Assembly (NCBI RefSeq): GCF_030013595.1 | Contig: NZ_CP122768.1 | Length of the DNA: 64,000 bases | Direction: 5' to 3' (one strand) | Source of the DNA: Escherichia coli | GTDB taxonomy: Bacteria > Pseudomonadota > Gammaproteobacteria > Enterobacterales > Enterobacteriaceae | Part shown: positions 52,701 to 58,700 of the stretch, piece by piece | How the letters are laid out: each line of letters begins with the position of its first letter | Position numbering within the stretch: the first letter of the stretch is position 1 | Program-made: the position numbers

Positions 52701-55700
52701 CCTGCCCGGCCTTGATGCGCTGGCCGCCGCTTTCCATGTGTTTACCCACGGTCATTTCCCCGGTGGAAATAATCATGGTGCGCCATGTGTTGACCGGGCG
52801 GGCCATGCCGGACACCTTGCCACGCTGACGGCCTGTTCCGTTGCCAAGCTGATAAATCAGCCCGCCAATATCTCTGGCCGGGGCTTCGCCAATTTCATCC
52901 AGTATCAGCGCGGTATCGTTCCGCATGGTTGCCAGCCCTTCAAGCCCGGTGCTGGTGGCGTTCCAGTTGCGTTTAAAGTTGCGGGGTTCTCCCCATACGC
53001 TACAGGCCACCAGCGCCCCCACGCTTTTCCCGCTGGAACTGTCGCCCATGAAATGAAATCCGCCGCTGTCCACATCAAGCAACCACAGCAACGGCCCGGC
53101 GAGCGATGCACACACGGCCAGCATGGTTACCGGGTTTCCCCGGCATAATGCGGCCACGTTGTCGCGCCAGCCCTCCGGCGTTCCTGCGGTGGCGTACTCC
53201 TGTGAGCCTGCTTCTGTTGACTGAAACACCACATCACCATCACCGATAACCCCGCCCGGCATGACAAACAGGGCCGGGGAGTGCCACCCGGTGGCCGTGG
53301 CCGCGAGCGCCCGGCGTTTTGGTGCTGACTCCATGATGTATTCAGTCAGTGCCTGCCGTTGTTTGTAGGGAATGGTAACGCCCATGCGTAGCAGTTCCTG
53401 CCGGAGTTCTCCGCCGTCTCCGGCGAGCATTTCCATCGGTGCGGCCCATTCCCGCCACTGGCCTGACGGCGTGAGAAAACGGAGTAATCGCCCGTAGTTT
53501 TCGTCTTTGCTGTCGCTGGTCATGGCGATGACCTCCAGCGGGGAACATATAAACGTGTCTGTGTTGGTTGAGTCGCGCACGCCGTGCCAGTAAAGGCCGG
53601 GTTTCAGTATCTGGCCGCCGTCCACCTGTACATGCTGCGAATAAGTGGCGTAGCCCGGACGCGCCGGGCTGACTTTGGGGTGTTTCTTGCGTGGTGGTTT
53701 TCTCTTCCCGGATGTGACCGGGGTTTTAGTGGTTGTCCGGGTCATGCTCCATTTCCCATAGCATCAAATCGTTAAAGTCGGAAAGGTCTGGTGATGCACC
53801 GGGCGGCCATTCCGGGAATGTGACGTAACACCCGGCCAGCAATGCGGCTTCGTTGGCTGCTCTGGAACCGGGGTTATCTTTTGATGCCCGGTCATCATCC
53901 CCGGCGATAACGAGAGATATGCGCGAGCCGTATCGCTCACGCAGCGCCATAGCCACATGTTTAAGGTTTCCCGCATTCATGGCACACACCACGGCCATGA
54001 CGTTCCAGTACTGGAGAAGGGCGGCCCCGGTGGCCCACCCCTCACACACGTAAACGTCATGTTCCGGCGCTTCCGGGGCCATCAGGTCAAAGCTCCCCAT
54101 AACATGGAAAGCCCCCTGCACCTGACCATCACGGAGAAACATTTTTCGACCGTCCGGGCTGATAATCTGCACGTTCACCACTTCGCCGCATACGTTGTAC
54201 AGCGGGACAAGCAAATCATTACCTGACTGATACAGATTGCCGGGCTGTAGCCGTTTTTTCATGAGATAGGGATGAGAAGGGTTTGCCACCTCCGCCCGGC
54301 CAAGCAACTCAAAGGCCCGGCAGGCGGTCAGTTTCTGGCGCTGGTGGCGCTGTTGCTGTTCCCGCTGGCGGAGTCTGGCCGCCTCCTGTTCTGCGGCCTG
54401 TACCCGCACCCGTTGCGCCTCCCGTTGTTCGCGGGTCATTACATCAGGTTTGCCCAGCGCGGGCAGGCACAGCCCCAGCCTGTCCGCCACAATACGGGCG
54501 GCATCAGTCTGCCGCACATTCCATAAATAAGCCCCCAGCGCCACAAGGTCGCCGCCGCTGTCCCCGGTGGCGAAGTCGTGCCAGCATCCGTCCACCAGCG
54601 AGACGGAAAAACTGCCCGCGTGACGGTCTGCACGCGTGGGGTTACGACACACCCATTCAGTGGCCTGCCGTTTACCTTCGGGCAGCCATTCGGGAACAAG
54701 GATTTCTGCATGTTGTGCCGCCACTGCGGCAACGCTACGGATTGCGTTAATCGTGGCTATGTCACGCATGTTGCCCGTCCTCCCTGATTTCCCCGGTGCG
54801 GCAGCGCCAGTTATACGCCTCCACAACCTCACTGAATCCGGCCACAAGTTCAGCCGTAACAGCGATGGAATCGCCCAGGCTGCGTAGTTCATTTGGACCA
54901 AGAGCATTATTGTCGCCAATTACCGAAAGTAGCCGCCCTGTGCCAGCCAGCGCATCAAGCAGTTTGCGGGCGCAGTAATCCGCATCATCAAACATTGCGC
55001 GGGCTTCCTGTGCGTCTGCGTTTTTGATGGCCGCAACCAGTAGTTCAGGTATCCGGGTGTTATACATATCACGCATGGCTTACCTCCCCGGCCTGCTGGT
55101 CGTAACACTCCATCAGTTCGGCCATACAGCCAATGAGGGCAGGGGCTGTCTGTAGAAATCCGGCTAACTGGCAGATCTCGTCTCTGGAATAGGTGATGGG
55201 GTTTTCGCGTAACTGGCTTTCCTCCAGTGCCTTACCAACAAAGGCAATCCCCGCAAGTAAATTCACTCTGTGCCAGTCTGCATCAACGCGCAGACTCCAG
55301 CGGCTTTCTTCGTCCGGCATACTGCTCATGGCGGCTTTCATTGACTCACGCAGACAATCACGCATGACGCACCCCCTGAGCCGGAACGCGGCCAGCAAAC
55401 AGCAACACAAAATCACGCGCCAGCATACGGCGGGCGGTTGTTTCATCGGGTGCGTTGACGGATTCGCGGTGTGGGCGGTCGTTCAGGTCGGAACGGCGAA
55501 CAGCCAGAAAGTGAAAGGTAAATTCAGGGTGTAACGGGGTTGGGGTCGTAGCCATTCTGGCAGCCTCCTTTTGCAAATTTAAGGAGTCACCGCCTGAGTT
55601 CCTACACTCATAAGGGGCGGTGACGCTGGCAGGGGTAGGAATACCGGCGCAAAAGGAAACCGGCCAGCCTTTCGGCTGCCCCACCAGCGCCACCATAGAT

Positions 55701-58700
55701 ACAGTGCGGGTCTTGCCGCTGTGCATGGGTGCGCGATGGCACGACACAAAAAAAGACGCTGGGCGCGTCTGTGTCGCCTTTTGCTCATTAAACGGGTTCC
55801 TACGCCCGGCTGGTGGATTTACACCAGCGGGGGAAATATAACGCCCACCAGCGATGGCAGGCAAGCAATATTTGCGGTTGCCGCCCATCCCGTGGGGCGT
55901 GTGGTGGTTGTTTTGGGCGTGAGAACGCCCCGGCCCTGTTACGGGCCTTTCTGGCATTTTCATAATGATTATCGCGGTTGGTTAGTGGCTGGTGGGTTCT
56001 TTGTTTTTTTGCGCTCTGGCGATAATTTCTGCCATTACGTTATTGCGTTCCTCCACGCGGGCCGCAAGCCATGCATTAACTTCGGATTCAAACCATCCAA
56101 CGCGGCGCAGCCCGCGACGAAAGCCGGGGATAAATTCGCCAGCCCGAATCATGTCGTCAATGCTGGTAGTGGAACGAAGGCGCAGACGCGCAGCAACCTC
56201 GCGTTTGGTGAGGATTTTATCTTGTGTGGTGTCCATGATATTTCGCCTCTTAATTGTATTAATTGGCCCTAACTGGCCATAACAATATGGAAGCACAAGA
56301 AGGCGTGAAATTGCCGGACATGTCCATCAGATGGCTGACATGTCCGGCGTATACTCATTCGTGAATTGACTAATCAACCTTAAACCAGCGTCGCATGGTT
56401 TTTTGTGAGGGCAGAGATAAACCAGCTTTGCAAAAATCGTTTTCTAATTCTGTTGGCTGGCCCTTGGTTTTGTCTTCTCTTACATGAAGCCATGGTTTGC
56501 CTCGCTTCGTTTCATCCTTGTAATACAGATAAAGCAAATCATCCACAAAAGCAGGCAGTGCGCTTCTTGGGTCTGGTTGTGTCGTCGGTGATGGTAGTTT
56601 TTTGGTTATGCACCCCATTAACATCCCGTTAGCGCAATCTCTCCCGCCATCCTTAAGGATTTCGATTTCTTCGGCGGTAATAAACAGGTCATCAATGCTT
56701 ACATCGAGTGGACTGGAATCAAAAGTAATCATCGGGCTGAGGGAATAATCGTCACCGTCAGTGTTCATTGTCCTTGGCTTTCCAAGAGAAAAACGAGCCG
56801 ATGACTTTCCATATTTTACAAAATCATAAAAAGGCATGGATTTGGTCAGGTTGCATATGGACATTAACCCTTCTATGGTCAAGTACCTGTATCCCATTAA
56901 AGGTATTTGGTTTTTCGGAATACCTCTGGGACGTTCTTCACTGATAAACAGAATTGCTGTTGTGACTTCAAAATCTCCCGCGCTATATGGTGTATAGACG
57001 GTAAATGGTAGCTGACACAGTGAATCGCCAAGCGGTTTAAATAAAACATACTTATCAGTTGATTTAGTTTCATAATGGTTAAACAGGTCAATTTCAGCCC
57101 GCCACCTTCCTGATATATGTGTACAAATCTCCAGCATTCCTATGTCAGCAAAATGAAGCAAATCATCAACACTGCACTTATTGGAGTTTGCAGTCAGATA
57201 ACTGGCCGCATCGCGTAGTGAGTAAAACAATCTTTTAGGTAATGCCATATTATTCACCAACCACTTTTAAGCCACGAAAACCGCCAGTTGCACTAAGGCT
57301 TCCGGTTGCTGCCTGTTCGATAAAATCACCCCACCACGCCATCAGTGGGCGGCGTTGCTCCAGATATGTGGAGCGATTGTAAGCCCGTCTCACCGTGTCC
57401 TTATCCAGATGGGAAAGCGCAGCCTCTATTACATCTGGCGGGAACCCCTGTTCATTAAGCGCCGTACTTGCTACAGAGCGTAAACCATGCGCCACCAGCT
57501 TTCCGGTATACCCCATGCGCCTGATAGCGGCGTTTGCGGTCTGTTGATGCATCCCACGCATGGGGTCGCTGTTATGTGGAAAAACAAACTTTCGATGCCC
57601 GCTGATTGGGCGCATGGCTTCAAGAATGGCCATTGCCTGATTATTCAGGGGGACAATGTGCTCCCTTCGTTGTTTTAGTCGCCCGGCTGATATACGCCAC
57701 ACTCTGGCATCTGCATCTATCTCGCTCCACTGTGCCCCGGCTGCCTCGCATGGGCGGCAAATAGTTAATAATTGCCATTCAATAACAAGACGCGTTTGAA
57801 GTTCTGCGCGAGCCGTTGCCAGTTTTTGCATAAATTCCGGCAACTCATCAGGCCTGATTGTTGGCATGTGTTTAACTACAGGTGGGTTGAATGCCTTGCT
57901 GATTTGAGCGGCGGGATTAGCTGGAATTAATCCAATATTCACTGCGTAATACATAACCTCATTGATTCTTTGTGCCAGCCGTCGCACCGTATCCGCTTTG
58001 CCCTGTGCTGATACAGGTTTCAGGGCTTCGATAAAATCCCGTGCAACCAGTTCTGTGATTGGGCGATGGCCTATGGGTGGCAGCACATGACGCTCAAGAG
58101 AACGCCATATATCACGGAGTGTATTTGCCGCCAGATTCTGGCCGCGCTTTACTTCAAACCATTCTTCGGCCACGCGCTGAAATGTGTTTAATCGCCGTAT
58201 TTCATCATCCCGGCGTTGTTTTTCCCTGTGTTCTTTGGGGTCAGTTCCATTTGCGACCAGTGAGCGATACTCGTCTTTAATCCTGCGAGCATCGGCAATG
58301 CTGATTTCGGGATATGCACCAAGGCTTAACATTGCCCGTTTTTTGGTGTGTGGCTTGTAGTACCGGAACCGCCATAAGGCTGATGCGCTACCCGCTTTCA
58401 CAACTAACTCCAGCCCATCGCCATCCGTGATAAATAAATCCTTCTCGGCGGTGAGCGATTTCTTCTGCAAACTTTTAATCGTCGCTGGTGTAAGTAATTT
58501 TGTGTTTTTGGCCACTGGTTGCATCCCGAAACAGGTTTAAGGCATACGAGATTGCTTCTGTTTGTGAGGATATGCCTTGATGTATGCCTAAAGAATCTGG
58601 CTTATACCTTAGCAAACTGGCCAAAACTGGACAATAAAAAACCCGCAAGCCTTGTGTGGCGCGGGTTTCGTCTGATTAACTGGCCGTATCTGATACTAAC

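Follow-up and report, generated by a model that had tools for sequence, protein, structure and literature searches.

In P4, a constitutive promoter inside the eta gene gives rise to a transcript that is ended early through the CI RNA, itself processed from that transcript, and the seqA sites; Kil is a truncated Eta made on read-through, and full-length Eta, whose translation prevents termination, is made solely from a late promoter further upstream and in coupling with an alpA homologue (PMC10111431). Both the P4 CI RNA and the C4 RNA of phages P1 and P7 are RNase P substrates (PMC5499578), and in P1/P7 sequence differences in the antisense segments give heteroimmunity (PMC12197685). In P4-like prophages, IsrK has been equated with seqA and C4 with the CI RNA (PMC3632133, PMC4825925), and the C4 and isrK profiles also match several Gram-negative phage-inducible chromosomal islands (PICIs) (PMC10111431). 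Here we analyze a comparable region in a 64,000-nucleotide stretch of Escherichia coli DNA from contig NZ_CP122768.1 (the whole stretch is called the window, and all positions are given in its coordinates), located on the minus strand between an alpA-like gene and a small kil/icd-like gene. This region is very probably the immunity (self-repression) module of a P4-related satellite island with RNA control of the P4 type, a reading carried by homology, RNA structures, three-way complementarity with co-variation, the overlap of a target site with a Shine-Dalgarno sequence and a conserved open frame, all of which are observed in the locus and its relatives.

Predicted leader and antisense RNAs and an open frame in one region

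Searching the whole window against all Rfam families returned three matches above the curated cut-offs: tRNA, isrK and C4. The isrK match (RF01394; 55749-55828, minus strand; 60.7 bits vs. a cut-off of 50; model positions 1-77 of 77) is followed 48 nt downstream by the match to the C4 antisense RNA (RF01695; 55613-55700, minus strand; 79.6 bits vs. a cut-off of 45; model positions 1-87 of 87; E = 5.9e-14), and it is under these two families that the predicted RNAs are filed (Table 1). A preliminary description, made by reading the sequence alone, had pointed to a long gap between alpA and the next gene, and the gap is there, running from the TAA stop of the alpA-like gene at 55982-55984 to the ATG of the next annotated gene at 55555. 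Its suggestion that this gap holds a small regulatory RNA resembling P4 CI is borne out by the full-length C4 match above cut-off, the isrK match, the alignment with P4 and the co-variation of antisense segments with their targets. The minus-strand hairpin on which it had focused (agacgc...gcgtct followed by seven U) is likewise real, with its stem at 55754-55770 and the U-run at 55748-55754, so that the coordinates first given (55741-55764) were a few bases off; its assignment as the terminator of the CI-like RNA does not hold, as the hairpin instead lies at the end of the upstream leader RNA.

Table 1 Features of the predicted immunity module and of the surrounding island (window coordinates)
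Feature	Position	Strand	Details
Sigma-70 promoter-like site TTGCCT-18-TATATT	55835-55864	-	-35 TTGCCT 55859-55864; -10 TATATT 55835-55840
IsrK/SeqA-like leader RNA	55748-55828	-	isrK match; hairpin 1, hairpin 2, a1, terminator hairpin, U-run
Hairpin 1 of leader	55809-55828	-	
Hairpin 2 of leader	55793-55808	-	
b1 site GUAGGAA	55797-55803	-	loop of hairpin 2; complementary to b'
a1 site GCAAAAGG	55777-55784	-	seqA equivalent; complementary to a'
Intrinsic-terminator-like hairpin AGACGC-GCCCA-GCGUCU + seven U	55748-55770	-	stem 55754-55770; U 55748-55754
CI/C4-type antisense RNA	55613-55700	-	Rfam C4; long outer stem enclosing two hairpins
a' segment UCCUUUUGC	55649-55657	-	large loop of second inner hairpin
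b' segment UUCCUAC	55635-55641	-	3' internal bulge of CI-like RNA
Alternative helix	55586-55624	-	CI outer-stem 3' strand GUCACCGCC (55616-55624) with GGCGGUGAC (55586-55594), enclosing the b2 hairpin
b2 site GUAGGAA	55599-55605	-	in small hairpin 55596-55609
a2 site GCAAAAGGA	55566-55574	-	overlaps Shine-Dalgarno AGGAGG (55564-55569)
Eta-like open reading frame, 201 aa	55358-55963	-	including stop codon; spans the entire RNA region, in phase with the kil/icd-like gene
kil/icd-like gene, 65 aa	55358-55555	-	including stop codon; ATG at 55555; first gene after leader
alpA/vis-like helix-turn-helix gene, 84 aa	55982-56236	-	position of P4 ORF88; TAA stop at 55982-55984
296-aa protein gene	56370-57260	-	between integrase and alpA-like genes
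Integrase gene	57250-58524	-	Pfam Phage_integrase
Two small open reading frames, then Toprim primase gene		-	3' of the 65-aa Icd-like gene; Pfam Toprim_3
DUF927 helicase-type gene	51907-53745	-	Pfam DUF927

The leader carries the structure expected of isrK, with two 5' hairpins and a terminator of the Rho-independent type that coincides with the 3' end of the isrK match and folds at -9.2 kcal/mol (z = -4.18, with none of 200 shuffled sequences folding as well). This hairpin is presumably the equivalent of t1, one of the P4 terminators t1, t4 and timm, which was reportedly described by Briani et al. 2000. Upstream of the leader lies a promoter-like site that matches the sigma-70 consensus at 9 of 12 positions and ends 7 nt before the start of the isrK model; its predicted -10 hexamer coincides with the 'consensus -10 sequence' marked by the P4 depositors, and we take the P4 promoter aligned with it to be the one named PLE.

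Between the alpA-like stop codon and this promoter-like site, the ~115 nt at 55865-55981 (minus strand) form a gap in the alignment, having no counterpart in P4. The same interval contains two G+C-rich hairpins, GGCCCGUAACAGGGCC and GGGGCGUUCUCACGCCC, neither of which is followed by a U-run.

The CI-like RNA folds at -48.6 kcal/mol (z = -4.27) into a minimum-energy structure that equals the structure of the C4 model, and its acceptor-like stem is followed by GCC (GCCA in P4). Both of its antisense segments find their complements twice, once in the leader (b1 and a1) and once downstream (b2 and a2), where a2 overlaps the ribosome-binding site of the 65-amino-acid (aa) Kil/Icd-like gene, a gene assigned by NCBIfam to phage_ICD_like (E = 7.2e-20). 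We also observed an alternative helix in which the 3' strand of the CI outer stem pairs downstream instead, and which folds at -23.1 kcal/mol (z = -4.79). It may act as a switch, and we tentatively take it to be a candidate for the site called 't4' in P4.

All of these elements are crossed by a single open reading frame (ORF), contrary to the preliminary description, which had seen no convincing ORF in the stretch. The 201-aa product of this frame matches phrog_6928 (E = 1.3e-50), and over the 300 nt that precede the start codon the in-phase frame is free of stops in 76 of 94 relatives, whereas the two remaining frames are so in 1 of 94 and 5 of 94 (mean stop counts of 0.73 vs. 4.6 and 2.2). 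The lengths of the spacer between a1 and CI in P4-like classes also differ by multiples of three. As judged from its sequence, the frame fits P4 eta as described in 2023 (PMC10111431). Instead of being purely non-coding, the region therefore specifies RNAs and is at the same time traversed by an eta-like frame. Because this frame is open, the RefSeq annotation (PGAP) at 55580-55888 on the minus strand (L001:6113-6421) places an 'ash family protein' pseudogene there, alongside the Icd-like gene, and lists no RNA gene. The 'ash family protein' name derives from the old P4 'ash/cI' ORF.

Co-variation of antisense segments with their targets

The preliminary description had named comparison of covariance and structure across related elements as a way of checking its proposal. 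We collected relatives by scanning viral contigs with a DNA pattern derived from the CI core, in which the a' loop was left free, and obtained 120 loci; this pattern was used in place of a protein search with the 65-aa gene product, which found only 3 loci. The inner CI hairpins are invariant in this set because the search pattern fixed them, and those pairs are uninformative. Across the 102 sequences that were aligned, the pairings are conserved and show changes on both sides, as the earlier proposal would have it: the combined structure, including a1-a' and b1-b', is paired in 95.5% of cells, and 41 of the 68 pairs have changed on both sides. Shuffling gave 85.3%, with none of 500 shuffles coming up to the value for the real alignment, and sliding the partners out of register gave 35-48%.

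The specificity segments themselves are highly diverse, with about 35-42 different a' loops among the loci and, in 101 sequences, 42 types of a' and 19 types of b' occurring in 60 combinations. The complement of an element's own a' is found at a fixed place upstream, just before the terminator, and again ~65 nt after the loop hairpin, beside the Shine-Dalgarno sequence. The element's own b' likewise has its complement at set positions, one upstream and one downstream. For a', the longest exact complement averages 7.6 nt upstream and 8.2 nt downstream with the element's own loop, vs. 5.0 and 4.6 nt with foreign loops, and for b' the corresponding means are 6.0 and 6.1 nt (own) vs. 4.0 and 3.2 nt (foreign). 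Pair by pair, b1-b' is paired in 98.6% of cells, with 6 of 7 pairs changed on both sides, and a1-a' in 90.6-94%, with all 8 of 8 pairs so changed. Downstream, b'-b2 is paired in 94.6% of cells and a'-a2 in ~86% (8 of 9 pairs changed on both sides), the position of a2 being fixed in relatives. Such polymorphism, with targets that match it, suggests the existence of many immunity groups.

The structures that hold these segments are similarly maintained. Leader hairpins 1 and 2 are paired in 98.3% and 98.8% of cells, respectively, with compensatory changes; the CI outer stem is paired in 98.9%, with 7 of its 12 pairs changed on both sides; and the alternative helix is paired in 97.3%, with 8 of 9 pairs changed on both sides and slid controls reaching 15-52%. 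The terminator stem is paired in 95-97% of the sequences and carries a G-C to C-G swap in 38 of them, and a run of at least six T follows a1 at a fixed distance in 71 of the 72 distinct a1-to-terminator variants found among 93 relatives.

A further stem, CGACAC/GUGUCG (55742-55776, minus strand), could enclose the terminator and appeared by eye to co-vary; the pairing holds in just 74.7% of cells, with the outer pair broken in 68 sequences.

We also considered a different second antisense segment, the GGCAGCC of the first inner hairpin, whose partner would be the GGCUGCC that follows the Shine-Dalgarno sequence. This candidate was rejected because the downstream stretch varies among relatives (GGAGATTGT, GGAGTCTGC and others), and GGCAGCC is fixed in the set. 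Both the own-vs.-foreign comparison and the pair counts identify the 3' bulge UUCCUAC as the true b'.

A proposed mechanism and the readings set against it

Promoter activity, RNase P processing, termination, repression and translational override are read across here from work on P4, P1 and IsrK. On that analogy, a constitutive promoter inside the eta-like frame would start minus-strand transcription near 55828, and the new transcript would first fold its two hairpins, exposing b1 and a1. The intrinsic terminator would end part of these transcripts, yielding an IsrK/SeqA-like RNA of ~80 nt, and the transcripts that read through would contain the CI/C4-type RNA (~55613-55700), which would be cut out as a stable product. 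Its a' and b' segments could then pair with b1/a1 on new leader transcripts and also with b2/a2 just before the kil/icd-like gene, where, since a2 covers the ribosome-binding site, the first gene would by this proposal go untranslated, transcription would stop early and the downstream primase/helicase genes would stay silent. Were a promoter upstream of the alpA-like gene to fire, ribosomes translating the eta-like frame across the leader would be expected to override this RNA control.

A possible, if somewhat improbable, alternative follows the P1 c4-icd-ant type, in which the antisense RNA only blocks translation of the icd-like gene, with polarity on the genes downstream, and the terminator that follows a1 works as a simple attenuator, insensitive to the RNA. 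The P1/P7 c4 mechanism has been described (PMC12197685), as in P1 an Icd-like gene comes first here, with a2 overlapping its Shine-Dalgarno sequence, and P1-like phages D6, RCS47 and JL22 match the region at ~75% identity. However, b1/a1 co-vary with b'/a' as tightly as the downstream sites do, which would be superfluous for pure translational repression, and the elements follow one another (alpA-like, leader, kil-like, primase) as they do in P4, not as in P1. The two models also overlap, as the translation block in P4 feeds into termination as well.

We consider it unlikely that the module works with the opposite sign, as in Gifsy-1, where the short leader RNA would act in trans on the read-through transcript and turn on translation of the first gene. 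Salmonella IsrK has been shown to work in this way, at a locus that also has a stable RNA further downstream, STnc1160 (PMC4825925), and our leader does score above the isrK model cut-off. Nevertheless, the leader here cannot pair directly with a2/b2, because its a1/b1 sites are identical in sequence to them, and it could act only by titrating the CI-like RNA; in addition, P4-like prophages of S. Typhi require the IsrK-like element, a requirement that has been read as lysogeny maintenance (PMC3632133).

That the region is purely protein-coding, with an Eta/'Ash' protein as its product and the RNA structures incidental, seems barely plausible to us. The open and conserved 201-aa frame, its phrog_6928 match and the 'ash family protein' annotation by PGAP would all fit such a reading, yet many pairs change on both sides and stay paired, both within and between elements, for which protein constraint offers no explanation, and the protein models may merely reflect conserved nucleotides. 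The P4 immunity factor, moreover, was reportedly identified as an RNA by Forti et al. in 1995. Coding and RNA roles are known to co-exist in P4 (PMC10111431). Equally remote is the idea that the hairpin is a mere transcription terminator of the alpA-like gene, since, although it is the first canonical hairpin with a U-run 3' of that gene on the same strand, it lies ~210 nt past the stop codon, has a conserved promoter-like site before it and keeps a constant distance to a1 among relatives, and in P4 the translation of eta is reported to let transcripts from upstream read through (PMC10111431).

Several observations nonetheless weigh against a P4-type immunity module. Promoter-like sites of the kind found here are no commoner in the region than after shuffling. 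The Rfam c4-a1b1 model (RF03163) matches at 55789-55841 with 38.6 bits, under its cut-off of 46.7, although P4 itself also falls below (44.1 bits); the region was not filed under this family, and isrK covers the same bases. The set of relatives, having been collected with a pattern from the CI core, leans toward P4-like sequences. On the side of the island, no sid, delta or psu gene is listed in the PGAP annotation of an identical island in strain JP538, no dedicated models for these genes having been run, and no att-type direct repeat of at least 10 nt was found between the tRNA end (58660-58800) and the far end (50340-51300). Because the island is reduced in these respects, the module could be a silent relic, and because capsid-size and late-control genes are lacking we speak of a P4-related island rather than of a complete P4-like satellite.

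Taken as a P4-type module, the locus mainly calls for a correction of the annotation, placing a complete RNA control module where RefSeq lists no RNA gene. It also indicates that a reader without tools is able to recognize such a module from gene order and one hairpin. Two leads go slightly, and modestly, past the literature: the wide range of a'/b' combinations and the alternative helix conserved among relatives. Joining them, one may picture a combinatorial a'/b' code, an alternative helix acting as a co-transcriptional switch, and a stripped island using RNA immunity against its relatives, a joint reading that we regard as doubtful. If it were true, the code would divide P4-related islands into many mutually blind immunity groups, which might also take in P1-, N15- and lambdoid-type phages with the same RNAs; the alternative helix would decide between maturation of the CI-like RNA and control of termination or translation; and an island with only an integrase, this module and replication genes would use RNA immunity mainly to exclude or sense related elements.

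The island and its place among described systems

The right end of the window is E. coli chromosome, with rpoD, mug and a CAT-anticodon tRNA gene at 58713-58788, which ARAGORN calls tRNA-Met and PGAP (in an identical genome) tRNA-Ile. The island, ~8 kb long and with every gene on the minus strand, adjoins this tRNA gene; in JP538 the identical island extends from the tRNA gene to nfeF, ending before nfeF. Copies that are 100% identical occur in ten pig-associated E. coli genomes, and related copies were found in 172 of 5426 complete genomes. The core of a P4-like element is present, namely an integrase, an alpA/vis-like gene, eta/kil and an alpha-type primase-helicase, and a PHROGs search recovered primase families among the island proteins. 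The name alpA, used already in the preliminary description, is only loosely supported, as the Pfam Phage_AlpA score of 18.6 bits falls under the cut-off of 21, yet the protein is 41% identical to P4 ORF88 (E = 2e-14) and matches phrog_66, 'excisionase and transcriptional regulator' (E = 5e-12). The 296-aa protein gave no matches in Pfam, NCBIfam, PHROGs or PADLOC and may be island cargo.

We also observed two repeat arrangements elsewhere in the island. Just 3' of the DUF927 helicase-type gene, at 51641-51861, an 8-nt motif recurs nine times, six as GTTCCCAC and three as the complementary GTGGGAAC, in a cluster that looks like an iteron-type replication origin. Between the genes for the 296-aa and alpA-like proteins, at 56314-56347, lies a perfect 11-bp inverted repeat (CCGGACATGTC-N12-GACATGTCCGG). 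A promoter-like site (56235-56262) is located downstream of this repeat, which may serve as an operator or a terminator.

Among phage genomes compared by blastn, P4 matched through its immunity region (73% identity). The same three Rfam families match P4 in the same order (isrK 60.8, C4 74.9 and c4-a1b1 44.1 bits), and P4 shares the order of elements after the alpA/vis-like gene, with a ~200-aa open frame over the leader and primase/helicase genes downstream; P4 Eta itself we take to be 199 aa long. The promoter hexamers are conserved in the alignment (GCTTGCCT, and TATAGT in P4 vs. TATATT here), the terminator is nearly identical and carries seven U, the CI core and the ribosome-binding site are conserved, and the aligned first ORF is also 65 aa long, starting MATTLTPSHPEF in P4 vs. 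MATTPTPLHPEF here. In contrast, the specificity segments differ: P4 has CCUGUGAA as its a' and UUCUCAC as its b', where this locus has CCUUUUGC and UUCCUAC, respectively, and a1/a2 and b1/b2 have changed to match. Since these differences in segments and targets go together, the element is, on the sequence evidence, probably heteroimmune to P4, and cross-immunity is unlikely. Duplex energies for cross-pairing with P4 were not used for this assignment, as they separate own from foreign pairs for b' (approximately -10 vs. -5 kcal/mol) but barely for a', because G+C-rich stem bases are included. Further differences from P4 are a terminator-to-CI spacer that is 60 nt shorter, an eta-like ATG 19 nt after the alpA-like stop (close to the stop in P4), a primase function spread over two genes in place of the single alpha gene, and the lack of annotated sid, delta and psu.

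The blastn comparison also returned the P1-like phages named above (~75% identity) as well as N15-like phages. The c4 RNA of P1/P7 belongs to the same Rfam family C4 and likewise contains a pair of antisense segments that both find one target upstream and another downstream, the latter lying over the ribosome-binding site of an Icd-like gene. The present locus differs in what follows, with replication genes of a satellite-type island where P1/P7 have an antirepressor (icd-ant), and in its leader, for which the c4-a1b1 model of P1-type leaders stays below cut-off. The Salmonella Gifsy-1 IsrK RNA falls in the same Rfam family as our leader and shares its two 5' hairpins and intrinsic terminator, followed by a stable RNA and a small first ORF (PMC4825925). 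It differs in belonging to a lambdoid prophage and in activating translation in trans, whereas the context here is P4-like and the equivalent sequence of P4-like elements is the target of a repressor RNA (PMC3632133, PMC4825925).

Finally, the island at ~8 kb, with no late or packaging genes in its annotation, differs in this respect from Gram-negative and helper-embedded PICIs, with which it shares an integrase, an alpA-like gene, an eta-like gene with C4 and isrK matches (their Bro-zone gene) and primase genes, the very set that has been reported for several of those islands (PMC10111431). The arrangement found here is thus one already described for P4 and for Gram-negative PICIs (PMC10111431, PMC3632133).

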